A stretch of 32,000 nt of DNA from Candidatus Saccharimonadota bacterium. Lineage in GTDB: Bacteria; Patescibacteriota; Gracilibacteria; BD1-5; UBA2023. Made by a program: the position numbers and the translations under genes. The DNA is taken from NCBI GenBank assembly GCA_046350815.1, contig JAXLZO010000001.1, positions 390,001 through 422,000 of the forward strand. The letters are read 5' to 3'. Shown piece by piece: positions 1 to 32,000 of this stretch. Each line of letters begins with the position of its first letter. Position 1 is the stretch's first letter. The notes under the pieces are model-generated. The model saw only the letters and a program-made list of their open reading frames with translations. It did not search any database and was not told where the DNA came from.

Positions 1-567
1 GTTTGTTATTATGATGGAGAGAGACGATACGTGCTTGCCCATAAAGACATGAAGGTAGGCGATGTGATTATCACTGCTGAAACGGCAAAGCCAGTTGCAG
101 GAAATCGTATGAAGATTGGTAATATTCCAGTTGGACTTGCGATCTATAATCTTGAACTTATTGTCGGGCAAGGAGCATCAAGTGTTCGATCTGCTGGATC
201 GAGTGCAATGGTGAGTTCACAAGAAGGTGAGTATACACAAGTAAAAATGCCCTCTGGTGAAATACGAAAAATTCACAAGAATTGTTACGCAACTATTGGT
301 GTTGTATCTAATACAGATCATAACCAAATTGTGATTGGTAAAGCAGGTCGTTCTCGATGGATGGGTATTCGTCCTACGGTACTCGGTTCATCTATGAATG
401 CTGTAGATCATCCACATGGTGGTGGTGAGTGACATCAATCTCTCGGTCAACGAAAAGGTCCAAAGACTCCTTGGGGAAAACTTGCTCGTGGTGTCAAAAC
501 TCGACGACGCAAAGATACCAATCGTTGGATTGTTCGTACACGAGCTGGTAAGCTTCTCAATCCTTAG
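1..567 (+). CDS. rplB: 50S ribosomal protein L2, C-terminal part (5' end outside the window)
   Basis: Frame 1 is open from base 1. The sequence reads ...MNAVDHPHGGGE-[TGA 430-432]-HQSLGQRKGPKTPWGKLARGVKTRR. The invariant L2 motif is HPHGGGEG, so the TGA sits on Gly. True stop is TAG 565-567. Confidence 0.95.
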
Positions 568-585
568 TCCCTTTCTCTTCATCTT

Positions 586-849
586 ATGTCACGAAGTCTT
601 AAAAAAGGACCATATATTGCGGAAAAACTTGTCAAAAAGATTCATACTTTGAATACTTCAGGCAAAAAGACCATCATTAAGACATGGTCACGAGATTGTA
701 CGATTACTCCTGAGTTTGTTGGACACACATTTGGTGTTCACAACGGCAAGGCTCATACTCCTGTATTTGTTACAGAAGATATGGTCGGGCACAAACTTGG
801 AGAATTCTCTTTCACCCGCAAGTTTACTGGTCACGCTGGTAATAGATAG
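586..849 (+). CDS. rpsS: 30S ribosomal protein S19
   Basis: 87-aa [14 protein letters not shown]...[10 protein letters not shown]...[11 protein letters not shown] with a typical S19 sequence and the canonical position after rplB. Stop is TAG. Confidence 0.95.
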
Positions 850-863
850 TTTTTTTCAACGCT

Positions 864-1190
864 ATGAAATCATATATTCGAAACGCTCGAATCTCACCTC
901 GAAAAATGCAGGTGATTGCTGCTATTGTCCGTAACATGGATGTAAAGCAAGCGCTTGATACACTCCAATTTATGCCACAGAAATGAGCTCTTATCCTTTA
1001 TAAGGGTCTTCATTCTGCTACTGCAAATGCAGAGCATAATGATATGCAAGAACGAACAAACCTCGTTATTGAGAGTTTGGTTGTAAGTAAGGGAGTGGTA
1101 TACAAGCGATTCAATCCTGTTTCTCGTGGGCGAGCTCACCCAATCAAGAAACGAACTTCCAATGTTTCTATTTCTCTTTCCGTAAAATAA
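864..1190 (+). CDS. rplV: 50S ribosomal protein L22
   Basis: ATG at 864 and one in-frame TGA at 984-986. Contains ...SATANAEHN...RGRAHPIKKRTSNVSI, typical of L22. Stop is TAA at 1188-1190. The gene is absent from the standard-code track because of the TGA. Confidence 0.9.
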
Positions 1191-1194
1191 TCCT

Positions 1195-1827
1195 ATGGGA
1201 CACAAAGTTAGCCCTCTGGCATTCCGTATTGGATATATTAAAACATGGAAGACTTCTGGTTTTTTTGACAAGAAGGAGTATGGATCAAATGTTTCAACTG
1301 ATCTTAATATTCGATTTTTTGTACAATCATTCCTCAAAGGACTTCCTATTGCAAATATTTTTATCTCTCATACAAGCACTGGTATCTCTATTGTGATCTA
1401 TACGTCACGTACGGCACTTGTTCTCGGTGAGGGTGATGAAAATGCAACAAAACTTCAATTAGCTATCCAAAAGAAGTTTGGAAAAATCGCCACAATTGAG
1501 GCAAGGGAGGTAAAAAAACCTGAACTTTCTGCAGATTTAGTCGCTGATTCTATTGCTCGACAAATCGAAAAGAAAATGCCATATCGACGAGTTATTAAAA
1601 ACGCGATTGCTCGATCTCTTGAGAAAGGTGCACTTGGAATCAAAGTTATTCTTTCTGGTCGTATTAATGGTGCGGAAATCGCTCGTCGTGAAACCTACAA
1701 AGAAGGAAATATCCCAACACAAACTATCCGAGCTGATATTGACTACGCTACAGAGCGATCAGAAACAGTAGCTGGTACAATTGGCGTTAAGGTATGGGTG
1801 TACAAAGGGGAGGTCTTCAAAAAATAG
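1195..1827 (+). CDS. rpsC: 30S ribosomal protein S3
   Basis: 210-aa ORF MGHKVSPLAFRIG...GRINGAEIARRE...GTIGVKVWVYKGE with the canonical position. Confidence 0.95.
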   Translation: MGHKVSPLAFRIGYIKTWKTSGFFDKKEYGSNVSTDLNIRFFVQSFLKGLPIANIFISHTSTGISIVIYTSRTALVLGEGDENATKLQLAIQKKFGKIATIEAREVKKPELSADLVADSIARQIEKKMPYRRVIKNAIARSLEKGALGIKVILSGRINGAEIARRETYKEGNIPTQTIRADIDYATERSETVAGTIGVKVWVYKGEVFKK

Positions 1828-1867
1828 TTTTGACAATTTGCTTATTTCTCTATAATTAGGGTCGTTT

Positions 1868-2269
1868 ATGTTACAGCCATCACGGGTTAAATACCGCAAA
1901 CCTCAACGTGGGGTCATTCGTGGAATAGCTGTTCGTGGTTCTACAGTTGCTTTTGGTGCATTTGCATTGAAGACTGTTGAGCCAGGATATCTGAATTCCC
2001 GACAGATTGAATCTGCACGTCGAACCATGATTCGTTTACTCCGAAAGGGTGGTAAACTCTGGATTCGAATATTCCCTGACAAACCTTTCACAAAGAAACC
2101 TCTTGAGGTTCCGATGGGTGGAGGTAAGGGTTCTCTCGAAATGTTTCGAGCTCCTGTCAAACCTGGTCGCATACTCTTTGAAATATCAGGAGTTTCACCA
2201 GAAGTTGCTCGAGAAGCTTTTCGGCTTGCAAGTTATAAATTGCCAGTTAAGACGAAAGTCATTATCTAA
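1868..2269 (+). CDS. rplP: 50S ribosomal protein L16
   Basis: 133-aa [14 protein letters not shown]...PMGGGKGS... Confidence 0.95.
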
Positions 2270-2274
2270 CTACT

Positions 2275-2418
2275 ATGTCTGAGATTACTCAAATTCAACG
2301 TGAACTCTACATTCTCAAAATGCAAAATAGTTTGGGAGTGACAAAGCAGTCTCATCAAATCAAGCTCCTCAAGAAAAAACTTGCTCGAGCACAGTCTAGC
2401 CTTAATTCTCAAAACTAA
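2275..2418 (+). CDS. rpmC: 50S ribosomal protein L29 (short, 47 aa)
   Basis: Hand-translated [47 protein letters not shown]. It lies between rplP and rpsQ and is helical and basic like L29. It is below the 60-aa cutoff of the track. Confidence 0.75.
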
Positions 2419-2423
2419 ATCGT

Positions 2424-2651
2424 ATGAGAAAAATTACTGGTGTTGTTACGAGTACCAAGATGCAAAAAACAATTGTTGTGCGTGTTGATACACACATGAC
2501 ACATCCAAAGTACAAAAAACGCTACAAAGTTTCAAACAAATTTTATGCTCATGATGAGAGCGAAACAGCTCAAGAAGGTGATACGGTTACTATTCTTGAG
2601 TCACGTCCTCTCTCAAAGTTAAAACGCTGGACTCTTGTTCAATCTAATTAA
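2424..2651 (+). CDS. rpsQ: 30S ribosomal protein S17
   Basis: 75-aa ORF ...[18 protein letters not shown]...[13 protein letters not shown] with the canonical position. Confidence 0.93.
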
Positions 2652-2657
2652 TATCTC

Positions 2658-3026
2658 ATGATACAAGCTGAAAGCCGACTTACCGTCGCAGATAATACTG
2701 GAGCTCTTGAAGTACTTGTTATCAAAGTACTTGGTGGTTCCAAGCGTCGCTATGCCTCTGTTGGTGACATCGTGGTCGTTGCTGTAAAACGCATCAACCC
2801 ACAAGGTAATATCAAGAAAAAAGCAGTCCTCAAAGCAGTCATTGTTCGAACAGCATTCTCTATTCGTAGAGATGATGGAACATATGTAAGCACAGATGAC
2901 AACGCTTGTGTTCTCATTGATGAAAAAGGAGAACCAAAAGGTTCTCGTGTGTTTGGTCCAGTCTTTCGTGAAGTACGTGCTGCTGGTTACCAAAAAATCG
3001 TCTCTCTTGCTCAAGAAGTAATCTAG
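2658..3026 (+). CDS. rplN: 50S ribosomal protein L14
   Basis: 122-aa [19 protein letters not shown]... Confidence 0.95.
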
Positions 3027-3034
3027 TTATACTT

Positions 3035-3244
3035 ATGAAGATCAAAAAAGGTCAAAGCGTTACCGTTATTGCTGGTGACGATAAAGGAAAAACTTGAAGC
3101 ATTCTTGCTCTCAAGAACGATCGCGTGACAGTCGAAGGGGTAAACATCGCTACTAAGCATGTAAAACCTCAAAACGGTCAAAGTGGTCAAATTGTTAAAG
3201 CTGAGCGACCTATTCACATTTCTAATGTTCGTATTGCTTTATAA
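3035..3244 (+). CDS. rplX: 50S ribosomal protein L24 (short, 69 aa)
   Basis: [20 protein letters not shown]-[TGA 3095-3097][24 protein letters not shown]... The KOW motif GxDKGKxG places the TGA on Gly. Stop is TAA at 3242-3244. Confidence 0.88.
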
Positions 3245-3246
3245 TT

Positions 3247-3792
3247 ATGCACTCATCTTCGTTTCGTTCTCACGTTCAAAGTGAGATTATGCCGAAGCTC
3301 ATAAAAGAGCTCGACATTAAAAATCCTATGCAAGCCCCTCGTCTTGAGAAAATCGTACTCAATATGGGTATTGGTTCTCTCACGACAGCAAAGCAGGATT
3401 ATAAAACTTTTGTCTCCGATCTTGGTCTTATTGCCGGTCAGGCACCAGTTATAGCCTACTCTCGTAAGAGTATCTCAAACTTCAAACTTCGAGAAGGAAT
3501 GCCAGTAGGTATTATGGTTACACTTCGTGGTGATGCTATGTATGCATTTCTTGAGAAGCTCATTGCTGTTGTTCTTCCTCGTGTTCGTGACTTTCGTGGA
3601 ATTTCCTCAAAATCATTTGATCAGAAAGGAAACTTCAACTTTGGTATCAAGGAACACACTATTTTCCCTGAGGTTCCTCAGCTCGATGTAGTAAAAACAC
3701 ATGGAATGCAAGTAACTTTTAAGTTTCAGTCACAAGGTGCTGATCACTCAAAAGCTTATCTCGATTCTCTCTGATTTCCTTTTTCTAAATAA
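3247..3792 (+). CDS. rplE: 50S ribosomal protein L5
   Basis: The ORF runs 3247-3774, then TGA at 3772-3774 is read through to ...AYLDSL-G-FPFSK-TAA. The terminal FPF(R/S)K is the conserved L5 C-terminus. Confidence 0.93.
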
Positions 3793-3793
3793 T

Positions 3794-4018
3794 ATGGCAA
3801 GAAAAGCTCTCGTCGTGAAATGCGAAAAGGCTCATGCTCGTGCTGAGCATCTCCTCTCTCTCGGAAAAAAGGTCGTATTCCCTACTCGTTTATACAATCG
3901 TTGCTCCGTGTGTGGTCGTGTTCATGGCTACATTGGCAAGTTTGATATGTGCCGCATCTGTATTCGTGAAGCTGCAAATAGCGGTGAACTTATGGGTGTT
4001 AGAAAGTCAAGTTGGTAA
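3794..4018 (+). CDS. rpsN: 30S ribosomal protein S14, zinc-binding (CxxC...CxxC) type
   Basis: [12 protein letters not shown]...[26 protein letters not shown]...VRKSSW. The start codon lies 1 nt after the rplE stop. Confidence 0.92.
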
Positions 4019-4037
4019 TTCTCGTTATTTCTCCATT

Positions 4038-4424
4038 ATGATCATCGATCCTATTGCAGATATGTTGACTCGTATCAGAAACTGATACCATGCGCGTCTT
4101 TTGACCGTTGAAGTCCCATATTCTACTCTTAAGACTGAGCTTCTGCGAATTCTTAAGAAAAATAAATACGTAGCTTCGTATGAGGTATCAGAAGATAAGC
4201 GTTCTATTACTGTTGGACTCAACAATGTTCGCGAAACTCTCTATATCCCTTCTTTCCGTCGTATTTCTCGTCCAAGCCAAAGAATCTATATCAAAACTGC
4301 TGATATTAAGAAATCTAGAAATGGCCACGGCATCTACATTCTTTCTACTCCAAAGGGGATTATCACTGGCTATGAAGCTCGTGCTCTCGGTGTAGGTGGA
4401 GAACTTCTTTGTGAAGCATTCTAA
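4038..4424 (+). CDS. rpsH: 30S ribosomal protein S8
   Basis: MIIDPIADMLTRIRN-[TGA 4083-4085]-YHARLLTVEVP... The conserved S8 N-terminus is DPIADMLTRIRNG, so the TGA sits on Gly. Confidence 0.93.
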
Positions 4425-4436
4425 AAATCTATATAT

Positions 4437-4988
4437 ATGTCTCGTATCTGAAAGTTACCTATCTCTCTTCCTTCAGGAACAACTTTCTCGCTCGATAATT
4501 CGATCGTGACTCTCAAAGGAAAAAAAGGTGAACTTAAATTCACCCTTCAACCTTGTGTATCAGTTACTCAAGAAGATAATACTCTTGTAGTTTCTGTGAA
4601 GAATCAAGATGTGAAAGAAGAGCGGGCTCTCTGGGGTCTCACTCGAGCATTAGTTGCCAATATGGTGACTGGTGTAACTGAAGGGTTTAAGAAATCACTT
4701 GAAATTCAAGGTGTTGGTTATAAATTTGAAGTGAATTCTCCTTCAAAAATCACCTTGGCTGTTGGTTTTTCTCATAAGATAGTACTTGACGCTCCAGTAG
4801 GTGTTAGTATCACCGCTGATGAGAAAGAGAAAAATATCATCCATATTTCTGGAATTGATAAACAACAAGTTGGTTATTTTGCTGCTCTTGTACGCAGCAT
4901 AAAAAAGCCTGAACCGTATAAGGGAAAGGGTATTCGCTATGTTGGTGAGTATGTTCGTCGTAAAGCTGGTAAAACTGCTGGTAAATAA
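4437..4988 (+). CDS. rplF: 50S ribosomal protein L6
   Basis: MSRI-[TGA 4449-4451]-KLPISLPSG...KGKKGEL...KPEPYKGKGIRY. L6 proteins start MSR(V/I)GK, so the TGA sits on Gly. Confidence 0.93.
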
Positions 4989-4994
4989 TCTTCT

Positions 4995-5333
4995 ATGCTT
5001 CAGAAACTTCAAAAGCGCCTGATGCGCAAAGCACGAGTTCGTGCTAAAATTCACGGAACTGCCACTCGTCCACGACTTGCGGTATTTCGTAGCAATGTGT
5101 CTATTTTTGCTCAGCTCATCAATGATGACCTCGGCGTAACTCTTGCAAGCGCAAGTTCTAAGTCAGAGACTGGTTCAAAGACGGAATGTGCACATGCTGT
5201 AGGTATTGCTCTTGGAAAAATAGCAACTGAAAAAGGTATCCGTGAATGTGTATTTGACCGAGCTGGATTTCAATATCATGGCCGTGTAAAAGCACTTGCA
5301 GATGCAGCTCGTTCTACTGGTCTCAATTTTTAA
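4995..5333 (+). CDS. rplR: 50S ribosomal protein L18
   Basis: 112-aa ORF ...[10 protein letters not shown]...[20 protein letters not shown]. Confidence 0.94.
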
Positions 5334-5345
5334 GTATTTCTCTGT

Positions 5346-5855
5346 ATGACACAGACACAACAACAAGATCGTCAAAGAAAGCCTCGTCGAGATAATCGTC
5401 GACAATTCGATGAAGTTCCGAAGGAATACCAAGAAGAGCTCCTTGAGGTTCGTCGTGTAACCCGTGTTACAGCGGGTGGACGCCAGCTTCGTTTTCGTGC
5501 TGCTGTTGTTATCGGCAACGGCAAAGGAAAAGTTGGTCTCGGTATTGGTAAATCTTCAGAAGTACAATCAGCGGTTGAAAAAGCAGTTCGTGATGCAAAA
5601 AAGAATCTTATTGAATTCCAGATAGTCAACGGTACTATCCCTCATGAAATTACTGCAAACTTTAAAGCAACGTCTATATTCCTTCATCCTGCGGTTGATG
5701 GTACTGGACTTATTGCCGGAGGTTCTATCCGTAAGATTCTTGCCGTTTCAGGGCTCAAAGATATCATTGCAAAACGTCATGGTGGTCGAAACCAACTTAC
5801 GAATGTAAATGCAACTCTTCGTGCACTGAAAGCCCTCAAAACTATCGTAGCTTAA
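5346..5855 (+). CDS. rpsE: 30S ribosomal protein S5
   Basis: 169-aa ORF ...RRVTRVTAGGRQLRFRAAVVIGNGKGKVGLGIGKS... Confidence 0.95.
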   Translation: MTQTQQQDRQRKPRRDNRRQFDEVPKEYQEELLEVRRVTRVTAGGRQLRFRAAVVIGNGKGKVGLGIGKSSEVQSAVEKAVRDAKKNLIEFQIVNGTIPHEITANFKATSIFLHPAVDGTGLIAGGSIRKILAVSGLKDIIAKRHGGRNQLTNVNATLRALKALKTIVA

Positions 5856-5863
5856 TTAGAAAT

Positions 5864-6316
5864 ATGAATCATAATATTCTCTCGAGTACTCCGGGTTCTC
5901 GCAAAGAACGCATGCGCGTAGGTCGCGGAAAAGGTTCTGGAAAAGGAACTTTCTCTGGACGTGGTTGTAAGGGGCAAGGTTCTCGTACTGGACGTGGAAA
6001 GTTCAATTCAGCATTTGAGGGTGGACAAACTCCTCTTGTTCGTCGCCTTCCAAAGGCACGAGGATTCACTGCGTACAATCCTACGGAATATGCAGTCATC
6101 AATCTTTCAACCCTCTCAGCACTTTTTGCAAAAGGAATGACAGATATCAATCTTGATTCTCTCAAGAATGCTGGAGTTGTTCGTTCAAACAGTGAGCGTG
6201 TGAAACTTCTTGGTGAAGGTGAGTTGACTGGTGCTGGTTCTGTATCAGTACAGGCAGCCTCTGTAAGTGCTCAAGCAGCTCTTGCATCAGCTGGTATTAC
6301 TCTTACTCTTGCATAA
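5864..6316 (+). CDS. rplO: 50S ribosomal protein L15
   Basis: 150-aa ORF ...GRGKGSGKGTFSGRGCKGQGSR...GGQTPLVRRLPK. It starts 8 nt after the rpsE stop, leaving no room for rpmD. Confidence 0.93.
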   Translation: MNHNILSSTPGSRKERMRVGRGKGSGKGTFSGRGCKGQGSRTGRGKFNSAFEGGQTPLVRRLPKARGFTAYNPTEYAVINLSTLSALFAKGMTDINLDSLKNAGVVRSNSERVKLLGEGELTGAGSVSVQAASVSAQAALASAGITLTLA

Positions 6317-6320
6317 AACC

Positions 6321-6342
6321 TCCTGAGTAATCAGGATTTTTT
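6321..6342 (+). terminator. Rho-independent terminator closing the ribosomal-protein operon
   Basis: Stem TCCTGA, loop gtaa, stem TCAGGA, followed by TTTTTT, located 5 nt after the rplO stop. Confidence 0.7.
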
Positions 6343-6468
6343 AATAGAAAATTCATAAAGCAACCAAAAGAAAATAACTCTCACATAATGAAGAACTCTT
6401 TCTAAAAAATGCTCTCCCTGATCACTGCTATACTAGAGATGGTTTTTAGGAGTGGTTAGATTTAACCA

Positions 6469-6498
6469 AAATGCACTTTACTATAGTAAAGTGCATTT
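6469..6498. terminator. Perfect 13-bp hairpin between convergent transcription units
   Basis: AAATGCACTTTAC, loop tata, GTAAAGTGCATTT. It lies 32 nt beyond the stop of the minus-strand ORF 6530-6760. Confidence 0.55.
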
Positions 6499-6529
6499 GA
6501 TTTGAAGAAAAGAAATCAAGCATTACGAA

Positions 6530-6760
6530 CTATTTCTTTAAGAACTTCTCATGCTGAGTTTCAGTGATGATTGTGGAATCACCATCAGAAACAATTTTTA
6601 ACCCATATCCTTCATAGGTACATTTTCCTGTGTGTATCACGGGTGGAACATGTTCCTTTTCTATCTTAAGCGTTCCGTTTTCTTTTGAAATACGGATATA
6701 GTCACCATAGAAGGATGAGAAAAAGTTACCAACATGGGTAGTTGTTGGGAAGTCGTTCAT
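6530..6760 (-). CDS. Hypothetical small protein (76 aa)
   Basis: Uninterrupted ORF preceded by caGGAGtatttatcATG (minus strand), one of the few clear Shine-Dalgarno sites in the window. I recognise no family. Confidence 0.45.
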   Translation of the reverse strand: MNDFPTTTHVGNFFSSFYGDYIRISKENGTLKIEKEHVPPVIHTGKCTYEGYGLKIVSDGDSTIITETQHEKFLKK

Positions 6761-7021
6761 GATAAATACTCCTGAAAAATCGTTTTCTCCACTATCGTTT
6801 GGGAGAAAACATCAAGTGATAATCGGAAAAACCCGACCGTTGAGTTTGCTCCTCGGAAAAGATAGCTAAATCACTTTAGCACAATATATTTTTTTTGTAA
6901 AGTTTCTTGACTCATTTTCTTAAAGAGGGATATATACTTGATAATCTTTCCAAAATTTCGATTCCCCCCTGCTATGTAAGCAGAACATTCTAGAAATATT
7001 TAGTTGTTAAAAAATTACTTC

Positions 7022-8194
7022 TTATCCTTGCTTTTGCTGGAAGATTATTCCATGCTCAGGTGTCTCGACTCTATCTAGATCAACAAAAAGATCGATATGG
7101 TACCTTTGGAGCATAGTTTTTGGGAGTTTCTTTCCATAGATACCGTGCTTCTTGCCAAGTGAGAGATGTATACCATGCTTACGCTCATGAAAATTCACGT
7201 CTGAGAGAGGGTGTTCTGTTGAGATAGCAGTGTTAAGACCGAAGCCAATTTCTCGTACCATCACCTCTCATTCGTGTTCGAGTACCATCTGATATATCTT
7301 CTGGAATCCTTCTGGAAATTCAGCATTAGCGAGAACCCTACCATTTTCTATATGTAATGGAAATGATTTGACTTGTTCAATGGAAAAATCAGTATTTGGG
7401 TAAGTATTAACCATAACAACACCATTCACGCTCTCTAGGTCCTTTGCTTCCGTAAAGACTTCACCAAGCGGAAAAGTCCCTCATTTATTGATGACTCATC
7501 GATAGTCACCAGTATTTCCTCGCATTGTCTCTGTTTCACCTACTTGCAATATCTCACCCGTACTACTGTAGATCCTCAATCATGAAGCAGATTGGGTAAT
7601 GTCAGATAATCGTTCGAATTCACTAATATAGTAGGGTGTTCTGTATTCATGTGATCGAATAAAGGTTTCAAATTGAGATTCTGGTATATAGGAGAGATGA
7701 TTGTGTTCGACGACATGCACTCCTCGATGAAAGAGTTCTAATCGTATTCGAAATGTGGAAAGGCGGAAGTTGGATGACTGTATCAGAACGACAATACTTC
7801 CTGCAGGGAGCGATAGAAGATCGTGCTTGATAGACTCTACTTCCTCAGAAATGAGCTCTTCCGTAACTGCTTTTTCTTCTTCCTGATGGTTGAGTCATCG
7901 TTCGAGATTCTCTCATTGATTGAATTCACTCATAATTCGTTTTTCTCATTCTTGATGAGGGTTTTTTGGATTAATAAGTCATCATCGGTAGAGAGGTGCA
8001 GGTGGGTCAATAAAACGTCTGAATATTATTCATTCGGTTGTTCAGAATGCACTCATGTATGCATCAGAAACAATGGTTGCAAGAGGGGAAAGTGTATCGT
8101 AGAGAATATAGACTGTTTCTGTTGTTCGTTCGAGATTTTTGATAAGAATGTTGTGGCAGGATTCTTCAAGTGATTTTATAAGATTGCTATTCAT
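7022..8194 (-). CDS. M29/AmpS-like aminopeptidase (390 aa)
   Basis: I hand-translated all 391 codons from ATG (top strand coordinate 8194). There are 11 in-frame TGA and no TAA or TAG. Motifs GGTFPLGEVFTEA and EIGFGLNTAI...HERKHGIHLSLG...YHIDLFV resemble the thermophilic-metalloprotease (M29) fold. The standard track shows only the last 80 aa. Confidence 0.5.
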
Positions 8195-8988: not shown

Positions 8989-10308
8989 ATGCCTCGAATA
9001 TATAATCTTGTTCTCATTTTCTTAGTTTTTTTACTCCCAAATACGAGCTTCGCAGAAGTACAAACAGCGAATGATATTGATATATCTGTATCTCCATTTC
9101 GATTTGAGCTTTCGGGTGACTCGGGAGATGTTATTGATCGAGAAATCACGCTCTTTAATAATACGGATCAGACTCGTGTAATTCTTCTTTCAAGAGAAGA
9201 TTTTCTCTCAAATAATACTACAGGAGTTCCACAATTCTATGCTCAAGGACAGGGGTGATTTAATGGGTATAAACTTTCTGACTGGATAACACTTATGCAG
9301 TCCAGTCTTACGGTTGCACCACATTCAACACAAAAAATGCAGTTTAGAGTTACCATACCAAATTCTGCCACCCCAGGTTGACATTATGGAGCTGTAATGT
9401 TCAAAAATCAAGATTCAGCAACCTGAAGCCAGATACAATTTGAAAAGAAGATAGCCTCCATTATTCTCCTTACAGTGAGTGGGGCAATTAGTGAGAATCT
9501 TGCTCTTAATTCAAGTGGGATTACGATCCAGCAAGTATCATCAAATGCATGAGGTGGAACATCGTTCAATCCAAACGCCACCATTGATACAGTACCTTGG
9601 TATCAATCTGTATTTGATGCTATCACAAATGGTGGTAGTAAGGAGGATGACACACTTCTCAATGATTTTTCGGTAGATTTCAATATTCCTATTAAGAATA
9701 CAGGAAATGTACATATCCGCCCAAAAGGGAAAATTACACTTCTTGATGAGTCCGGTGTACCCTTAAAATCCATCGGACGAGAATCAATAGTAGATGAGAA
9801 TGGGGTTGTTATCAGTGAATCAACCGTTGATTATATTCCTCTCAATAATCAACAAAGTGCTATTCTTCCGAACTCTGATCGTATATTTGAAAATACCTGG
9901 CAAGGATTTGTCGAAGAATACACTGATCGCTATGGCAAAAAACAATATCGATATCTCACTCCCTCAGAAAAATCAGCCGGTCGATCACTCAATGAGCGAC
10001 TCTTTCCTTGGGAAAAGCTTGAAACAAAAAAAGTACAGAAACAACTCACAGCGCAAATCGATGTAGAATACGATAAACAGGATGGAACAAAACAAGAATT
10101 TCATGCAGCACCAAAATTTCTCGTGGTCTACGATGAGGCAAAGGTAGTTATCAATTACTGGTCTCTTGCACTGATTTTTATACCAATTGTTGTACTTTTG
10201 TGAATTATCTTCTATCTCATTGCATGATTACGTCGTCGTCGATCTACTCTTCGCAAGGAAATTCGCAAAGAACTTCTCAAAGAAATGCAGGAAAAAAACA
10301 ATGAATAA
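8989..10308 (+). CDS. Secreted surface protein with a C-terminal TM anchor (439 aa), DUF916/DUF3324-like architecture
   Basis: Signal peptide MPRIYNLVLIFLVFLLPNTSFA. The gene has 6 in-frame TGA, a PG-[TGA]-HYGAVMF motif, a NTGNVHIRPKGKITLLDESG motif, a C-terminal helix WSLALIFIPIVVLLGIIFYLIAG and an RRRR tail. Length is 1320 nt, in frame, ending at TAA 10306-10308. Confidence 0.6.
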
Positions 10309-12409: not shown

Positions 12410-12484
12410 AGCTCTGTAGTTCAACGGTCAGAATTAAGGACTCCAAATCCTTCGATCAGGGTTCGATTCCCTGCGGAGCTGCCA
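12410..12484 (+). tRNA. trnW: tRNA-Trp (anticodon CCA)
   Basis: Hand-folded cloverleaf. Acceptor AGCTCTG/CGGAGCT with one G-U pair. D arm GTTC-aacggtca-GAAT. Anticodon arm AAGGA-CTCCAAA-TCCTT. T arm CAGGG-ttcgatt-CCCTG. Discriminator G plus an encoded CCA. Confidence 0.85.
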
Positions 12485-12486: not shown

Positions 12487-12540
12487 ATAAAACAAAAATC
12501 ATGAGATTACTTTATAAAACAAAAATCATGAGATTACTTT
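12487..12540. repeat. Exact 27-bp tandem duplication immediately 3' of tRNA-Trp
   Basis: ATAAAACAAAAATCATGAGATTACTTT occurs twice head to tail (12487-12513 and 12514-12540). Confidence 0.9.
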
Positions 12541-12800
12541 CGATCTTTTTATGATCAGCATTTATACTTAACTGAGTATTACATTTAGTAAATAATTTAG
12601 ACGCCTTAAGACACTGAACCCCATCATTATATGTACTAATATTTCTTTTGTATACATCATGGTGAGTGTGTCTTACTACTATTTGGTTTGTAGATTATTT
12701 CATGCATTTAAATTCATGAAATAATAGAGGTAGATTATATATCAAAAAACTAATACTTATTGTATGATTAATTACTACAATTGCATGAGTTAAACCTCTA

Positions 12801-20881: not shown

Positions 20882-22129
20882 ATGCATTCGTCTATCAACC
20901 CATTTCTTTCAGCACAAGCACAGATGCAAAGTGCTTATTCATTTCTCTGAGATGCCTATACTAACCAGTTTAGCTCACTCTTACAGCCTCATCGTGTTAT
21001 CGAGGTATCGATTCCAGTACATATGGATGACGGATCAATTCGGGTATTTACATGATACCGCAGTCAGCATAATAATGCTCGTGGTCCCTACAAGGGGGGA
21101 ATTCGATTTCATCCTGATGTGAGCCGTGAAGAAGTTATGGCTCTCTCTATATGGATGTCGATAAAATGTGCCACCCTTGATCTCCCACTTGGTGGTGGGA
21201 AATGAGGCGTAATATTCGATCCAAAAGAGCTCTCCCTCTGAGAACTTGAGCGATTGTCACGGGGTTATGTAGATCAACTTTTTCGCTACCTTGGTCCAGA
21301 TCAAGACGTCCCAGCTCCCGATGTGAATACAAATGCTCAAATCATGTCATGGATGGTGGATGAATATAGCCGTGTTACAGGATCATGGGCACCAGGAGCA
21401 TTCACAGGAAAACCAGTCATGATTGGTGGATCGCTTGGTCGTGATACAGCAACAGCACAAGGTGGATACTATGTACTCGAATGATATCTTGAAAGTATTG
21501 GACAGGTCATTGCAGGTAAAAAAATCATCATTCAATGAGCGGGAAATGCGGGACTTGAGATGGCAAAACTTCTTGTTGGCGGAGGTGCTATCGTTGTTGG
21601 TATATCTGATTCCCATGGTGGCATCTATCTGGAGAGTGGTCTCGATGTATGTCTGGTTCGAAGCATCAAGCATCAAAAACAAAGTGTGATTACCTACCCA
21701 AATGCTCAAATGATTGATAGTGATGCCTTTCTTCTGCAATCATGTGATATTCTTATCCCCGCAGCGCTCGAGAATCAGATATTCAAGGAAAATGCACCGG
21801 GCATTCAAGCAAAACTTATCATGGAGCTTGCAAATGGGCCAATTACCCCTGAAGCTGATACGATCCTTCATGATCGAGGAATTACAGTCATTCCTGATAT
21901 TCTCGCAAATGCAGGAGGAGTGACCGTCAGTTATTTTGAACAAGTGCAAAATAGTATGAATTTCTCCTGGGATCGTGACAAAGTTCAACATAAACTCCAA
22001 GAGAAAATGAAGATTGCCCTCCAAGGTGTTCAAGCAAGCGCTTATGAGCACAATGTGCCATTGCGAACCTGAGCCTATATTATTGCGCTCAAGAGAATAC
22101 TCGAAGCAATGAAGTTGCGTGGTATGTAG
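20882..22129 (+). CDS. gdh: Glutamate dehydrogenase (Glu/Leu/Phe/Val dehydrogenase family, 415 aa)
   Basis: FT-[TGA][20 protein letters not shown], LPLGGGK-[TGA 21203-21205]-G, IIIQ-[TGA]-AGNAG (first Gly of the Rossmann motif), [16 protein letters not shown]. There are 7 in-frame TGA. Stop is TAG 22127-22129. Confidence 0.92.
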
Positions 22130-22281: not shown

Positions 22282-22718
22282 TTAGTGAATTTTCAAAAAA
22301 ATAATCATTCCAATCAGGGTTTTATCGCAAGATGAAGCCTTTTTTGGTGGTCTACAATGATGTTCAAAAAGAGAATTTCAATGATCCTACCCTTTTGAAC
22401 ATTTGAAGCCTTTTGATAGAGCTTTGAAGCATTCTGAAAGATAGCTATGAAAGCTTCAATCTCTGCCATCTCACTCCTTTCATTCATATTGATTTTGGAC
22501 ATTTGAGTTGTATAAAAATCAATTCTTTTCTCAAAGCGTTCCCGTTTCTCATTATAAATACGCTGTTCCTCCTTATCCTTCTCAATATGCATATTTTTCT
22601 CGATATATTCATCACGTTCTTTGCGAATTCTACTAATATCAAGATGAATCGAAGTAGCGCTTCTTTGCGCTTTTTCGGCTATTTCTAATAGTTTACCATT
22701 TGCAAATTCAACGTACTT
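22272..22718 (-). pseudogene. C-terminal remnant resembling the coiled-coil tail of a large serine recombinase
   Basis: The frame is open from just after TAG (22719-22721) with no upstream ATG or catalytic domain. The sequence is a charged coiled-coil (...EKDKEEQRIYNEKRERFEKRIDFY...) ending ...QKGRIIEILFLNIIVDHQKRLHLAIKP, like recombinase tails. Under UGA=Gly the frame runs into the 3' end of tRNA-Lys. Confidence 0.3.
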
Positions 22719-23021
22719 CTAAAATCTTCCTTATCTTTGAGAGAAAATTCATGCACTTATAAATTGAATTTTTTCGGAAGATGATAATCTTGATGAAGAT
22801 TATCTCGTGCATATAATTTCCCTGATTTTGTTATATGGGCTAGGATGAGGAAAAATAGTGTATAATCTTCATCTTACAATGAGCCAAAAGAAATATTTGC
22901 GCGAATTAGTAGAGAAATGTACTTCTGAAAATGAAAATAGCGAAAAAATACATCGCTTATAAGCTTTGTTCAAGGGCTTTCTTGGGATTTCCTCACCTTT
23001 TGCCTCAATAATCCGAATCAA

Positions 23022-23696: not shown

Positions 23697-24647
23697 ATGA
23701 TAATAAATATACACGATTTTAAGATGCTTTTTCATAAAAAATTACTTATCTTATGAGTGGTTGATGAATCTTCTCGAATTGATATAATAGATCATTATCT
23801 CAATGCGGAATTTCGATGAAAGAAAACCCATGGAATATCTAAATTTCTCTATGATTCTCAATTTTATTCTGATAGAGAGGAAGATAACATTGCCATTGAA
23901 AAAGATAAGAAAAATACTTTGCTTATCAATGGAAATAAGGGTATTTGACCGTTGGTAATGAATGCTTGTGTGGATATTTTGCTAAATCGAATAAACGAAT
24001 ATGGAACAGTGATTATTGGACTAAAGAATTTTCAAAGATATGGATCATTGTTTGATTTTGTTGAGAAAATCGCACGAAAAGGATATATTGCATTTATTAC
24101 AAACAATACTGAACCTTTTGTTTTACCGTTTTGAGGTACTGCTCCATTATTTTGAACCAATCCAATAGCAATCGGTATACCGACGAATAAAGACCCTATT
24201 GTATTGGATATGTCTACCTCAGAAAGATCTGCTAATTCAATATGGAACACTAAAGATGGTATTCTTGAAGATTGAATCTATACCACAAAAACTTGAGAGT
24301 ACACCACTTGTGCTGCGGATGTTGTTGGTATTCGGAATTTTTGAGGACATAAATGATACTGAATTTCTCTGGTTGCTGAAGTTCTATCATCCATACCAAC
24401 AGCTGGGAATTTTAGCTTCAATATAAAGAATGATAAATATTGAACGGGTGCCTTTTTTCATGCAATAGATATTGCAAGCTTTTGCTCTATTGAATATTTT
24501 AAGCATCAAATTGATGATCTTATTGTTAAAATAAAAAATCAGGGGGCTTTTGTGCCATGAGAACAAAGTTTTTTGAAGTATGAAAGGAATATTCAAATTG
24601 GTACAATAGATCTAGATGAATCTATTGCTCAAGAATTTTTATTTTAA
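23697..24647 (+). CDS. Ldh_2 family (malate/L-lactate/ureidoglycolate-type) NAD(P)H oxidoreductase
   Basis: I hand-translated the segments outside the standard-code track ORF and found 12 in-frame TGA. Motifs are THGISKF, PF-[TGA]-GTAPLF-[TGA]-TNPIAIGIP and F-[TGA]-GHK-[TGA]-Y-[TGA]-ISLVAEVLS (family motif GGHKGYG). Stop is TAA 24645-24647. Confidence 0.7.
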
Positions 24648-25665: not shown

Positions 25666-25681
25666 ATGGCTCATCAAGAAA
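25666..25681. repeat. Left copy of the 16-bp direct repeat flanking the IS
   Basis: ATGGCTCATCAAGAAA is identical to 26816-26831. A 17th base T is ambiguous between the repeat and the IS end. Confidence 0.85.
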
Positions 25682-26815
25682 TGTTACAATTGCAGCAATT
25701 AGGTTTACATCATTCCCTTCTTGTCATGAAAGGGAGGAAATGAAAAAGGAGATAGAATGATGGTGAGGTGTTCAAACCTTGTGTCTTATCATTATCTTAT
25801 CATCCTATCTCCATGTGACCAAGATATCTTTGTTTTTCTATGTTGCAAATGAGAATAAAACTTCTTCAAGAAATTCTTGATGGAGCGAAGAAAGTCCACG
25901 AAGTGGCTTCTCTTCTTTCGGTCTCTCGTCAAAGCGTGAGTAAGTGGTTAGCTCGCTATCGTATAGAGTAAGAAGCTTGAGTAGTTCCAAAGCGATGTTG
26001 ACCGAAGAAGAATATTCCAGTGAATCGAACCAATCAAGTAGTAGAAGAGATGGTAGGGAATCTCGCACGAAGATATCCAGAGCTTTGACCAAGGAGTCTC
26101 TCATGGAAGCTTCAAGAAGAAACAAAGATTTCTCTCAATCAATCCACCATCTATAGAATTCTCTCACGAACGTGAGTTCGCTACAAGAGAAAATGAGAAT
26201 GGAGGCAACGACGTAAAACACTCTATGTTCTTGATCAACCAGGAAGAGAAATACAGTTAGATGTTTGCTTTCCTTTCTGACGCAGTAGAAGAGAAGTTCA
26301 ATACGATGCGATCGATGATTGTAGTAGGTTTGTCTTCTCAAGAGTTCACAGTGAGCAATGTGTACGTTCGAGTATGGAGTTTGTACTCAATCTCATAGAC
26401 GCTTCACCTTTTCCTATACAAACCATACGTACGGATTGTTGATCTGAGTTTGGAAAATGATTCACTGACTTTCTTGTCAGACTCTGAATACAACACAAAA
26501 GAAATGCTCCCTATACTCCACAGCACAATGGGAAGGTAGAGAGGTATCATAGAACTCTTTGGCAGAATCTTTGAGAATACTCATTGAAAATAGATATCCA
26601 TGAATATCGATACAAACTCAAGCTTTTTACTGATTACTACAATCATAGAAAACCTCACAGTGGACTTGGTATGTTTGGTATGACTCCTGCTGAACGAATA
26701 GGATACTCTCTTATACAAAACTCCCTCGCTTACGCGAGAGAGTCTGAATCACTATTCGATGATGTATGAAGTTTCAGAAGTTTATGAAATGTAAACTTGA
26801 CGCTGCAATTTAACA
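25682..26815 (+). mobile_element. IS481-family-like insertion sequence (1134 bp)
   Basis: Imperfect terminal inverted repeats TGTTAcAATTGCAGC...TTTACAT (left) and TGTTAAATTGCAGC...TTTACAT (right, reverse complement). There is a single HTH plus rve/DDE transposase ORF, and the element is flanked by a 16-bp direct repeat. Confidence 0.8.
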
Positions 26816-26907
26816 ATGGCTCATCAAGAAATCATCACCAAGTGGCTCGGCAAGAAATATGCGGAGTCCAAAGAAATTGGAAATCAATGTGTTATCTGGC
26901 CAAATAA
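25849..26907 (+). pseudogene. IS481-like DDE transposase with an in-frame TAA at codon 41 and no TAA/TAG stop inside the element
   Basis: HTH VSRQSVSKWLARYRIE-[TAA 25969-25971]-EA-[TGA]-VV... DDE core EIQLDVCF, TIRTDC-[TGA]-SEF, HNGKVERYHRTL, YNHRKPHSGLG. There are about 12 in-frame TGA, several on conserved Gly. The first TAA after the catalytic core is at 26905-26907, 90 nt beyond the right IR. Confidence 0.7.
26816..26831. repeat. Right copy of the 16-bp direct repeat flanking the IS
   Basis: ATGGCTCATCAAGAAA. Here it is the start of a 33-codon ORF (26816-26917). Confidence 0.85.
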
Positions 26908-26944: not shown

Positions 26945-27466
26945 TTATTCACTTTTTTGAGAATAAACATTCTCAAGATTCAGAAGAAGTTTCTTTTTCT
27001 TAATTCCCCAATGATACCCTCCGAGCGATCCATCCGATGATACGACACGATGGCAAGGAATAATAATGGCTATAGGATTCGCTCCTATCGCAGATCAGAC
27101 AGCACGAACAGCTTTTGGGCGACCAATCACTGCTGCAATTTGCTTGTACGTCTTGGTTTGACCGAGAGGAATTTTTTGAAGCTCTGCCCATACATCTTGT
27201 TGAAATTGGGTTCCATGAAGATGAATTGGAATATTGAGAAGATTTTCTCATTTGCTCGAGATGCAATCAAGTACTATCTTTTGGAGTTCGGATGACTCTT
27301 GAATAAGTTCGGATGACCGATATTTGTTCTGTAACTCTTGCAATGAAGCATCTTTGTCGTCTGCAAAGGAAAGCCAACAAAGATGTATTGTATCATCAGC
27401 GATTAAAACATCACCAAGTATACTTGGGTAGAAAGAATATCGAAGTATGCGTTTAATATTACTCAT
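26945..27466 (-). CDS. ogt: Methylated-DNA--protein-cysteine methyltransferase
   Basis: ...HLHGTQFQQDVWAELQKIPLGQTKTYKQIAAVIGRPKAVRAV-[TGA]-SAIGANPIAIIIPCHRVVSSDGSLGGYHWG. The PCHRV active site is present. There are 2 in-frame TGA. Stop is TAA 26945-26947. Confidence 0.9.
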
Positions 27467-27947: not shown

Positions 27948-28004
27948 AGAGGCAACGTTATGGATATCTACTCCTATGGTAGTGATTTGGACAAAAAAGC
28001 AATT

Positions 28005-30578
28005 TTATTCAACATATACTCAGCTGTCTTTATAGGTTACTGTGATATGCTGTCCTGTATGAATTCTATCTGCAACTATTTCTGTTGCGATGCGATTCAT
28101 AATTTCTCGAGTGATTGCTCTCTTGAGAGGGCGTGCTCCGAATTCGGGATCGTATCAGATCGTGACAAGATATCTGATCAGGCTTTCGGACCAGGTAACC
28201 TCTATATTTTTATCTCATAACATCTTCTCAATATCTCGGAGAAAGATATGAACGATTGACTCGAGCATACTCTCGGAAAGAGTATTGTAGAGGACAATAT
28301 CATCAATTCGGTTCAAGAACTCAGGACGAAAGTGCTTCTGCAGAGTTAATCGTATATATTTTTCTCTTTCTTTCTCATCGTGAGAGATATCATTTGGTAG
28401 CTCTCGTATCGCATTCGATGTCATGATAATGATAGAGTTTTTGAATGATACTACTCTTCATTTGCCATCTGTGAGACGACCATCATCGAGAATTTGTAAA
28501 AATACATTAAAAATATCTGGATGTGCTTTTTCAATCTCATCAAGGAGTATTACAGAATACGGCTTGCGACGAACTGCCTCTGTGAGCTGCCCACCTTCAT
28601 CATGGCCAATATATCCAGGAGGAGCTCAGATGAGTCGAGCAACCGCATGAGATTCCATATATTCGCTCATATCGATACGAATCATCGCATGTGGATCATT
28701 GAAGAGCTCTTCTGCTAGTGCTTTTGCTGTCTCTGTCTTTCCGATGCCAGTTGGTCCAAGGAAGAGAAATGATCCAATAGGTTTATCTGGATCCGAGAGT
28801 CATGCCTTGCTTCGAAGAATTGCCTGCGATACTTTCTCGAGAGCATCATCTTGTCCGATAACATGTTCTTTCAGGCGTTCAAAAAGGTGAAGGTATTTTT
28901 CACGTTCCGTCTCGACGAGCCTTCCAACTGGTATACCCGTCCATTTTGCAATAACACTGGCAATATCTTCAATATCAACTCGTTCTCGCAAGAACGATTC
29001 ACCTTTTTTTTGTAAATCATTGAGTTCTTGGAGGATGATCTCATTTTCCTTTTCAAGTGCTGGTATTTCACCGTAGCGAATTCGAGCAACATTATTAAAA
29101 TCCGATTGTCTCTCAAGACGTAGAGCTTCAATCTTGAGAGTGTCGACTGATTCTTTGTTGGACTTGAGCTTGGTAATGAGGTCTTTTTCCTTTTGCCATT
29201 TTGCGATCTTTGCGCTGTATATTTCACGTAATTCTGCGATCTTGCGATCGTTTTTTTCTTTGCTCTCTTCCGATACTCATCATTTTTCTCTCTTGAGAGC
29301 TTCGCGTTCGATCTCGAGAGTTCGAATTTCTTTTTCCATTTTATCGAGTTCTACAGGCTTTGATACTGATGACATTTTGACGCTGGATGCGGCCTCATCG
29401 ATAAGATCGATCGCTTTGTCTGGGAGTTTGCGATCGGGTATATATTTTGTTGCGAGCTCTACAGCTCCTACGATAGCACTATCAGATATCTCAATACCGT
29501 GAAATACTTCGTATTTTTCTTTGAGCCCACGAAGGATAGCTATCGCATCATCATGAGTTGGTTCATCGACGATAACTGGCTGAAAACGACGTTCGAGTGC
29601 CCCATCCTTCTCAATATATTTTCGATATTCCGCAAGAGTCGTTGCTCCAATAATCTTGACCTCACCGCGCGCGAGTGCTGGTTTGAGCAGATTAGATGCA
29701 TCGGCACCACCTTCTTGATTGCCAGCTCCGACAATGGTATGAAGCTCATCAATGAAGAGGATGATATCTCCTTCTGATTTGGTTACTTCTTTGATAACAG
29801 TTTTGAGACGATCTTCGAATTCGCCACGATACTTTGCTCCCGCAATGAGCGCACCGAGATCGAGTGTGAGGAGTGTTTTATTCCTGAGAGTATCAGGCAC
29901 ATCACCTTCTACGATCTTTCGAGCAATACCCTCAACAATAGCAGTCTTACCGACGCCAGGATCTCCTACGAGAACAGGATTATTCTTGGATCGACGTGCT
30001 AGTATTTGCATAGTCCTGCGGATTTCTTCTTCTCTGCCAATCACTGGATCAATCTTTCCTTTGCGTGCTTCTTCGACAAGATTGATGGTGTATTTTTCGA
30101 GCGCCTGATATTTTGATTCGCTCTCTGGACTATCAGCTTTTTGACCCTGGCGAAGCTCTTGGATCATTTTTTCTACTTTTTTCTCTTCGATCTGATACTT
30201 CATAAATATCTCCTTGAGAGATCGGGCTCGTCGTAGAGTGGCGAGAAAGAGATGCTCTTCGGTGATGTAGTTATCACCCATTGATTTCATGATTTTTTCA
30301 GCTTCTGCGATGACTTCTATGAGCTCTGATGACAGGGTTGTTTGAGGATCTCATTCGGATTGTGGCAGCTTTGTGAGTTGTGTTGTAACCTGCTGTATAA
30401 GATTCGCTATATCTATACCAATTTTTTGGAGTATATGCTGTATAAGTGAGTCAGAGTCATCAAGAATAGCTCTGAGAAGATGAATGGGTTCAACGGTGGT
30501 ATTTCTCTCACCGATCGCGAGCATCTGTGCTGATTCGAGGCGACTTCGTGCTTGCGATGTAAATTTTTCGATATTCAT
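28005..30578 (-). CDS. clpB: ATP-dependent chaperone/disaggregase ClpB (857 aa)
   Basis: It has the Clp N domain, NBD1 ([27 protein letters not shown]), an M-domain coiled coil and NBD2 ([16 protein letters not shown]-[TGA 28626-28628]-APPGYIG, TDGK-[TGA]-RVV, -[TGA][14 protein letters not shown]). There are at least 9 in-frame TGA including a tandem pair at 29277-29282. Length is 2574 nt, in frame. Stop is TAA 28005-28007. Confidence 0.95.
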
Positions 30579-30594
30579 ATGTGTGAAATTAATA

Positions 30595-30633
30595 TTAGCA
30601 CTTGAATTATATATGTGCTAATATTTGAGTCAA
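30595..30633 (-). promoter_or_regulatory. clpB promoter (-35 TTGACT, 16 nt, -10 TATAAT) embedded in a CIRCE-like inverted repeat
   Basis: TTAGCACTT-N9-ATGTGCTAA at 30595-30621, against the consensus TTAGCACTC-N9-GAGTGCTAA. On the minus strand TTGACT is 30633-30628 and TATAAT is 30611-30606, which lies inside the CIRCE spacer. It sits 17 nt upstream of the clpB ATG. Confidence 0.7.
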
Positions 30634-30680
30634 GAGATTTTTCATCACGTGTAATTTATATTAAATCAAAATATATATTA

Positions 30681-30713
30681 TTGACAATATTATATAATAA
30701 TTATTATATAATA
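30681..30713 (+). promoter_or_regulatory. Candidate sigma70-type promoter with an overlapping 26-bp A/T palindrome
   Basis: TTGACA at 30681-30686, then 17-18 nt, then TTATAT/TATATA. The stretch 30688-30713 is a perfect 13+13 palindrome (TATTATATAATAA|TTATTATATAATA). Confidence 0.35.
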
Positions 30714-30733
30714 ATATATTTTTCTCGATATTT

Positions 30734-32000
30734 ATGAATCAAATAAAACCATTGGATACACCGCCAGATGATATAGGTATTCCTCCTGATTCGCTTGAGT
30801 CACGTGCGAATCAAATGTATGAATATATCTTGAATATTTATAGCAATCTTGATCTGACTAATTTTTATCAGCATATTGATGATCTTTCTCAAAGAATTTT
30901 CCTGTCTGATGAAGAGAAAAAGGTGGCATTGCCGTATATTCTCAATAAAATAACTCAAAAAGTTATTACGGAATATAGTCAAAAAAATATTGTTTTAGCA
31001 TCCTGAAATATTATAGCACATCCAAAGCAATTTTTAATTATTGCGTTAAGTCAGATGTTGATTGAGGCTATTTTTGATCAAGAATCAGCTACTTTTGATC
31101 TCCTTGCTTTAGATAAGGCCTCTTTGTCTTGAGTACAATTAAGCTATTTAAGTATTGTAAAGCATCTCGCTCTTCTTAGTTGAAATAATAGTAGTGAAGA
31201 ACTTTTTATAAATCAAACTGAAGTATGATCAGAATTTTTTTGATTAACTTTAGAACTCTATCCTCTTTGATCACCTCAGCGAAGCCCTGGTTATTGGATT
31301 GATATGTTCCAAAAGTTACAAGGAAATCGGCGAGAATTCCTTAAATCCGTGCCATTTATATGGTGAGAAAAAGAATTTCGATCCTGTGTTCAACGATGAT
31401 TTAACCAATCACATGTACGTATCAATGGAAAGCAGTATAAAGTAAATGAAAAAGCAAAGAGTGTCTGGGAAAAGTCATTGAAACAACAGAAAAAAATCGA
31501 AAATCAGGGATGGGAAAGACGGGTAGTTATAAATGATAACACACTAACGATACAAGCAGATAATAATCCTCAATGGTGCATCTATATGACCATGGATGAT
31601 GAGGGTCCATCTATAGAATATATTCCAACTTCAGATCATAATAAATTTCTTGCCTTTTCCTATAAACACAAATCAGAGTGATTAGTAAGTAGCGAAATAA
31701 GTCTGAACCGGACTATAACACAAAAACTAGATAAAGAAGAGTTGGATAAGAACATTAAGACTATTTTTTTGCATACTTTCATATCATATGATCGATTCTT
31801 TGATGAACAAATTTTTGCAACTTCATTGGATAATCTGAGAAAATTCGATATGTGAGAATCTACTCAAACAAGGCTCGCAAACTCGGTCGTTGAGAGTGCC
31901 TCACACAATGCAACAACACTCATAAATAAAGTCTTTATTGATCCGAAACAACATCATACAGACATTGCACACTCACTTTGACTCGATATCGTTGATCACG
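30734..32000 (+). CDS. Large hypothetical protein, N-terminal 422 aa (3' end outside the window)
   Basis: I checked the frame codon by codon from the first TGA to the window end (the start is covered by the standard-code track ORF). There are 11 in-frame TGA and no TAA or TAG. I recognise no domain. Confidence 0.6.

Follow-up and report, generated by a model that had tools for sequence, protein, structure and literature searches.

The reading of UGA as glycine rather than as a stop, known as translation table 25 (the SR1 and Gracilibacteria code), is already well documented biology, as the initial annotation of the DNA considered here recognized. Proteomics in the lineage has yielded 97 peptides unique to the glycine translation of UGA, against 3 for tryptophan (PMC4032931), and prfB, the gene for release factor 2 (RF2), has been detected in none of the available genomes of the BD1-5 group (PMC6851277). 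The decoder of UGA is a tRNA-Gly with anticodon UCA, with the identity elements G1:C72, C2:G71, G3:C70 and U73, and Codetta predicts that in Absconditabacteria (SR1) and some Gracilibacteria CGA and/or CGG have moved from arginine to tryptophan as well (Shulgina and Eddy, PMC8629427). Two organisms labeled "Gracilibacteria" have RF2 and lack tRNA(UCA) (PMC8629427), so a taxonomic label alone is not sufficient for assigning a code. We considered a stretch of 32,000 bases (positions 390,001 to 422,000 of contig JAXLZO010000001.1, assembly GCA_046350815.1), referred to here as the window, and we are nearly certain that it is a piece of a Candidatus Gracilibacteria genome (BD1-5, Candidate Phyla Radiation, or CPR) that uses table 25, with UAA and UAG as the only terminators.

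The window has a G+C content of 38.2%. Under table 11, open reading frames (ORFs) of at least 100 amino acids cover 58.2% of it, and the longest has 357 amino acids; when only TAA and TAG count as stops, such ORFs cover 97.6%, and the longest, that of ClpB, reaches 871 amino acids. The gain is specific to TGA, because dropping TAA as a stop instead restores only 78.5% coverage and dropping TAG only 70.2%. Codon-usage scoring was used to discard the shadow ORFs that arise under a two-stop code, and the curated set of 36 genes comprises 9,004 codons, of which 121 are in-frame TGAs, such that UGA accounts for 1.3% of all codons and is found across all gene classes. Each of the 35 complete genes has TAA (27) or TAG (8) as its last codon, as the initial annotation had found for those genes it could delimit, although this follows in part from how the ORFs were defined; independent support for these ends comes from homologue and Pfam alignments that extend to the C-termini. 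In a Pfam scan of the window's products, made with TGA masked as X, domains cross TGA codons without any change of frame in L2, L22, L24, L5, S8, L6, UvrB, FolD and glutamate dehydrogenase (GDH), and they are likewise unbroken in the class-III aminotransferase, the CHASE2-cyclase protein, the O6-methylguanine-DNA methyltransferase (MGMT), the Ldh_2-family dehydrogenase, the rve integrase and ClpB. These domains and the stop-specific restoration of the ORFs agree with the earlier observation that conserved genes here are interrupted by TGA only, with the frame kept, and the nine TGA codons for which coordinates had been given are all present on the coding strand, in frame in the genes named (9 of 9).

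The residue opposite each TGA was read from homologues drawn from standard-code organisms, with the window's own GGN, TGG and TGY codons serving as internal controls. Glycine is the majority residue at about 43 of the 62 positions tested, and neither tryptophan nor cysteine is the majority at any of the 62. A Codetta-style column likelihood was calculated for the 33 TGA columns having at least 10 aligned homologues, which come from ClpB, the aminotransferase, the Ldh_2 dehydrogenase and six ribosomal proteins. Relative to background, the log-likelihood is +42.1 nats for glycine, -61.3 for tryptophan, the next amino acid, and -78.4 for cysteine. Glycine is the commonest residue in 26 of the 33 TGA columns, in 221 of the 270 GGN columns (Fisher p = 0.64) and in 79 of the 3228 columns of all other codons (p = 2e-34 against TGA). 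When the same test was applied to all 64 codons, the standard amino acid was inferred for 61 of 61 sense codons, among them CGA, which reads as arginine in 66 columns (+57 nats) and with 162 uses is one of the two commonest arginine codons, and CGG, which also reads as arginine (+9.6 nats, from 8 columns only). Plain table 25 is thus the right label, because the other codons, CGA and CGG included, read as standard; this shows for one organism what Shulgina and Eddy's screen left open for the Gracilibacteria as a group (PMC8629427). Judged by these columns, UGA reads as glycine, not as tryptophan or cysteine. The earlier proposal of a table 25-type glycine codon is favored by the column likelihood, by the exchange with GGN described below and by the 64-codon test alike, and tabulation of the consensus residue opposite TGA, which had been suggested as a check, gives glycine in most columns and tryptophan or cysteine in none.

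The individual genes, assigned by Pfam here and below except where another basis is given, differ in how clearly they speak. ClpB (28005 to 30578, minus strand) contains nine TGAs, at 30351, 29280, 29277, 28800, 28626, 28458, 28215, 28155 and 28020. Compared with 80 genomes from many phyla, the residue is glycine in 77 of 77 at each of amino acids 593, 651 and 707, in 75 of 76 at 808 and in 42 of 80 at 76, while three further TGAs lie on variable or unaligned columns. The middle domain has a tandem TGA-TGA (29277-29282, amino acids 433 and 434), and strain L170 has TCA (serine) at the first of the two residues. The class-III (putrescine-type) aminotransferase (19507 to 20862, plus strand) has eight TGAs, at 20221, 20350, 20365, 20404, 20587, 20656, 20734 and 20821. 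Among 120 homologues, glycine is the commonest residue at seven of these; six are at least 94% glycine (amino acid 239 is glycine in 115 of 120) and amino acid 439 is 52% glycine. The Ldh_2-family dehydrogenase (23697 to 24647, plus strand) has 12 TGAs, and at 10 of them glycine is the commonest residue in 16 homologues.

The ribosomal protein operon (1 to 6316, plus strand), recognized from Pfam and from the public gene table, encodes L2 (partial), S19, L22, S3, L16, L29, S17, L14, L24, L5, S14, S8, L6, L18, S5 and L15, and contains six TGAs, at 430 (L2, amino acid 144), 984 (L22, 41), 3095 (L24, 21), 3772 (L5, 176), 4083 (S8, 16) and 4449 (L6, 5). In 79 metagenome operons, the corresponding residue is glycine in 54 of 54 sequences for L2, 71 of 76 for L24, 65 of 72 for L5 and 57 of 58 for L6; the L22 column contains eight alanines and three glycines, and the S8 column is alanine in 60 of 61.

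For several of the enzymes we relied on PDB sequences, with three or four displayed alignments for each. In UvrB (10414 to 12366, plus strand; TGAs at 10981, 11308, 11653 and 11887), all four TGAs, including that at amino acid 414, align to glycine in 3 of 3 sequences shown, as does the single TGA of FolD (13211 to 14197, minus strand; 14093-14095, amino acid 35). GDH (20882 to 22129, plus strand) has seven TGAs, at 20948, 21053, 21203, 21239, 21482, 21536 and 22070, five of which align to glycine in the sequences shown; amino acids 108 and 219 are glycine in 3 of 3 each, and the matching sites include the bracketed residue of GGGK[G]G and the first glycine of GxGxxG. The protein with CHASE2 and class III nucleotide cyclase domains (15509 to 17503, minus strand) has eight TGAs, at 17234, 16904, 16856, 16307, 16280, 16277, 15860 and 15755. 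Of the five in the cyclase domain one is clearly glycine, at amino acid 583 (2 of 2 PDB alignments); the tandem at 408-409 is GG in one of the three distinct cyclases shown, amino acid 399 aligns to glutamate (one sequence) and amino acid 548 to serine or glutamate. MGMT (26945 to 27466, minus strand; TGAs at 27248 and 27095) has glycine opposite amino acid 124 in Mycobacterium tuberculosis OGT and alanine in Escherichia coli Ada, while amino acid 73 aligns to aspartate. The TGA in the TDN[G]xEF core motif of the integrase corresponds to glycine in 3 of 3 standard-code IS481 transposases. The initial annotation had listed 11 examples of TGA falling on invariant glycines, and this description fits those in L2, L6, L24, ClpB, the aminotransferase, UvrB, FolD and GDH; it was too strong for S8 TRIRN[G], where alanine prevails as just described, though the closest recoded relative, L086, does have glycine there, for the cyclase L[GG]E, with GG in just one of three, and for MGMT RAV[G], which divides between glycine and alanine.

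Comparison within the lineage leads in the same direction. An S3 protein identical to that of the window is present in four more assemblies (Logan SRR26348422, NCBI GCA_964536125.1, ENA ERZ27248701 and Logan SRR11567540), and a 96.5%-identical strain is found in ERZ724508. In these five independent assemblies, every covered TGA is kept (23 of 23, 6 of 6, 6 of 6, 3 of 3 and 4 of 4), and single-nucleotide differences among them are overwhelmingly synonymous in the curated frames, which excludes assembly errors and pseudogenes. Recoding is also seen in L086, a more distant relative with 75% identity in L14. At the window's six ribosomal protein TGAs it has glycine codons at five, including those in S8 and L22, and a shared TGA at the sixth, and its own five other ribosomal protein TGAs fall on GGT or GGA in the window. 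Among strains 87-98% identical to the window (JGI, Logan), the codon that exchanges with TGA is GGN at seven sites, TCA at two variable ones and CAA at one further site, and no exchange with TGG, TGY, TAA or TAG was found among these strains. By such comparisons UGA and GGN interchange as synonymous codons within the lineage.

As to the organism, the identical S3 is also recorded at NCBI as MFO0763629.1, "MAG: Candidatus Gracilibacteria bacterium" (MAG, metagenome-assembled genome), and is found on a 1.28-Mb contig as well. By this label and by the recoded relative L086, the window is assigned to the Gracilibacteria or Absconditabacteria. The labels attached to S3 and L14 proteins that are identical, or nearly so, are themselves inconsistent, reading "Candidatus Gracilibacteria bacterium" for MFO0763629.1 and MFO0763633.1 versus "Candidatus Peregrinibacteria bacterium" for MCA9377597.1 and MCB9805028.1, and such inconsistency could steer annotation pipelines to the wrong code. 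If the published work on the lineage applies to this organism, a dedicated tRNA-Gly with anticodon UCA would decode UGA, the loss of RF2 would leave nothing to compete for that codon, and release factor 1 would serve UAA and UAG.

A number of observations weigh against the glycine reading. A UCA-anticodon tRNA is found neither in the window nor in its flanks (about 8.5 kb upstream and, in strain L170, about 5 kb downstream), nor did ARAGORN find one over 172 fetched loci; absence nearby says little, because the chance of finding such a gene so close is small. As noted, the exclusive use of TAA and TAG at gene ends is partly built into the ORF definition. For 59 of the 121 TGAs the surrounding gene or region has no homologue that can be aligned, and these fall outside the residue test, and the homologue sets that were used are phylogenetically non-independent and clumped (the ClpB set is rich in Collinsella genomes, and the named aminotransferase homologues are mostly from Chloroflexota). 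In 7 of the 33 TGA columns the commonest residue is something other than glycine, and columns of at least 90% glycine make up 18 of 33 for TGA and 197 of 270 for GGN (p = 0.04). ClpB amino acid 433, where the TGA stands on an aspartate conserved in 77 of 80 genomes, is on these alignments the clearest case of a TGA that does not match a glycine column, and in GDH amino acid 201 aligns to glutamate and amino acid 397 to alanine in the PDB sequences. It is the alignment evidence that carries the assignment of UGA to glycine.

We weighed several other ways in which these TGAs might be explained. That they are not ordinary translated codons at all, but assembly or sequencing errors, pseudogene lesions or selenocysteine sites, is an idea with nothing to recommend it beyond the bare presence of in-frame TGA, and we give it practically no credence: TGA is the sole interrupting codon and the frame is always kept, there are 121 of them in 9,004 codons over all gene classes, cysteine is never the commonest residue in any of the 33 columns, and the same TGAs recur in five assemblies from different samples, with overwhelmingly synonymous substitutions. 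The initial annotation had raised assembly error as something that might overturn its claim, and the TGAs proved to be identical across the five assemblies. Column likelihood and assembly conservation together rule out the error, pseudogene and selenocysteine readings. UGA might instead be a sense codon for tryptophan, as in the Mycoplasma, Spiroplasma and several insect endosymbionts that use code 4. What can be said for code 4 here comes from public records: the JGI copy of the Ldh_2 protein (P0121, 316 amino acids) has W at 12 of 12 TGA positions, and at six of the eight aminotransferase TGA columns, which are otherwise mostly glycine, W is carried by 2 to 5 of the 120 homologues. Both reflect the choice of code by a pipeline and are not biological evidence; P0121 has UGA rendered as tryptophan, giving 12 false W at glycine positions, and the W in the aminotransferase homologues is probably the same mistranslation in other recoded genomes. 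Tryptophan lies 103 nats below glycine in the column likelihood, is the commonest residue in none of the 33 TGA columns and occupies 1% of their cells, while the window's TGG codons align to tryptophan in 83% of cells. The single Trp tRNA of the window has the anticodon CCA, tryptophan content would have to go from 0.6% to 2.0%, and the absence of any TGA/TGG exchange among strains argues independently against tryptophan, because this transition would be the easiest synonymous change under code 4. We regard code 4 as extremely improbable, and it is ruled out by the column likelihood and by the missing TGA/TGG exchange. Just as improbable is an extended code of the Absconditabacteria type, in which UGA is glycine and CGA and/or CGG have in addition gone from arginine to tryptophan. 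The lineage is sister to the Absconditabacteria (PMC8629427), and tryptophan encoded by TGG makes up just 0.63% of codons, but CGA (66 columns, 162 uses) and CGG (8 columns) both read as arginine and neither aligns to tryptophan anywhere. The arginine columns rule out the extended code for CGA; for CGG, the sample of 8 columns is small.

The remaining alternative concerns the completeness of the reassignment rather than its identity. UGA might be read mostly as glycine, with some termination or ambiguous decoding dependent on context, which would explain its avoidance in ribosomal proteins. The share of UGA among glycine codons does rise steeply over gene classes: ribosomal proteins stand at 3.2%, conserved enzymes at 15.7% and the other genes at 39.4% (p = 1e-5 and 3e-8), with 55-67% reached in hyp22941, the integrase and hyp30701, so that its use climbs about 12-fold from the ribosomal proteins to accessory or poorly conserved genes. 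The mild depletion of TGA at columns of at least 90% glycine, a ClpB TGA four codons ahead of the TAA of that gene, and the single peptides with tryptophan, alanine, aspartate or lysine at UGA reported by Hanke et al. (PMC4032931) could be taken in the same sense. Ordinary selection on translation, acting against a minor codon, would however give a gradient of this kind, and among the glycine codons UGA has the highest A+T content, in a genome that is itself rich in A+T (38% G+C). In no conserved gene is there a C-terminus ending at TGA, and prfB is reported to be absent from BD1-5 genomes (PMC6851277). We therefore consider incomplete reassignment very unlikely, and return to full reassignment of UGA to glycine. 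The gene-class gradient and the depletion at the most invariant glycine columns could still mean that UGA is decoded imperfectly, and we offer, as a possible though rather doubtful extension, that decoding of UGA as glycine in this lineage is still slow or error-prone, the reassignment being tolerated and not cost-free. This might come about, for example, through tRNA-Gly(UCA) competing or wobbling with the UGG/tryptophan system, and if the proposal is true, selection against UGA would be measurable at critical sites and in genes with high expression.

The rest of the window fills in the picture of the genome. S5 is followed after 8 nucleotides by L15, and no L30 gene lies between them (window 5346-7021); the absence of L30 is reportedly a known CPR trait, said to go back to work by Brown et al. 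in 2015. The ribosomal protein operon ends at L15, without secY, adk, map, infA, rpmJ, rpsM, rpsK, rpsD, rpoA or rplQ, and L15 is followed by about 700 nucleotides without a confident gene and then by an unrelated gene on the minus strand. This putative gene, a hypothetical ORF of 390 amino acids (7022 to 8194), contains 11 in-frame TGAs and matches no Pfam family. UvrB is preceded by a protein that is secreted or located in the membrane and has a weak WxL-interacting PGBD domain (8989 to 10308, plus strand; six in-frame TGAs). The tRNA-Trp(CCA), which has a normal 5-bp anticodon stem, is located at 12410 to 12484 on the plus strand, and no tRNA with a UCA anticodon adjoins it. Just after it is a hydrophobic ORF of about 210 amino acids (12498-13127, plus strand) with eight TGAs and no family match, a putative gene that was passed over by the codon-usage model. 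FolD has a C-terminal extension of about 50 amino acids past the end of the PDB alignment (window 13211-13366), with no TGA, and this extension holds a hydrophobic, transmembrane-like stretch, YFFILLLLSFALLLGYMIGIF. Ribosomal protein L11 (14384 to 14815, plus strand) contains no TGA. A protein with a FecR domain is also encoded in the window, and at the far end a hypothetical ORF (30734 to 31999, plus strand) with 11 TGAs leaves the window edge; the full gene in strain L170 encodes 738 amino acids. The tRNAs of the window are Trp-CCA, Glu-CTC and Lys-CTT, and Rfam adds no further RNA.

The 120 best homologues of the aminotransferase share 66-72% identity with it. Two Gracilibacteria copies rank first and fourth among them, and many of those with a name are putrescine aminotransferases encoded in MAGs of Chloroflexota or Anaerolineae. 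The aminotransferase is far closer to its homologues than is ClpB, which is at most 58% identical to anything outside the lineage. The closeness of the aminotransferase may be due to horizontal gene transfer, followed by changes from GGN to TGA.

Two regions of the window vary among strains. An IS481-family insertion of 1,150 bp (25683 to 26832, plus strand), assigned from Pfam and from IS481 homologues on plasmids, is strain-specific and is flanked by a perfect 17-bp direct repeat, ATGGCTCATCAAGAAAT (25666-25682 and 26816-26832). The insertion is absent from strain L170, and strains L171 and L172 have IS1595-type transposases nearby instead. Its rve integrase ORF (25972-26907, 12 TGAs) may be decayed or frameshifted, because it has no obvious start codon and runs through the right-hand repeat. 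An element so rich in UGA must have been long resident in recoded hosts. The second region is downstream of the tRNA-Lys(CTT), where the window has 0.44 kb (22282-22724) and strains L170 to L172 have about 5.6 kb (3453-9027 in L170); the additional DNA carries genes for an acetyltransferase, for Cu-oxidase_4 and GFO_IDH_MocA-like proteins and for unknown proteins. This site is a strain-variable island at a tRNA gene.

The value of these results is practical rather than conceptual, and lies in the correct annotation of these genes. Table 11 breaks nearly every gene of the window longer than about 150 codons. In the public code-11 gene calls, L2 is cut at 237 amino acids, there is no L24, a topoisomerase has been split into three, and L5, S8, L6 and others are fragmented as well (gene tables L001-L004). 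Records like P0121, in which UGA has been translated as tryptophan, put a false W into homologue alignments.

Set beside the known ways of reading UGA, the window resembles users of table 4 in having UGA as a sense codon in a small A+T-rich genome, and in the same effect on ORF calling with table 11, but the amino acid here is glycine and not tryptophan. With selenocysteine recoding it shares the translation of an in-frame UGA. Selenocysteine sites are rare, limited to a few enzymes and aligned with cysteine, whereas UGA here makes up 1.3% of codons and aligns with glycine. The extended code of the Absconditabacteria (PMC8629427) is nearer, as it also has UGA as glycine and is found in a sister lineage within the CPR; it differs in that CGA and CGG remain arginine in the window, where CGA is abundant and not rare. 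Table 25 itself, from which no difference is detectable within the window, is matched by the in-frame UGA read as glycine, by UAA and UAG as the only stops with all other codons standard, and by the low G+C genome and the Gracilibacteria label that go with it.

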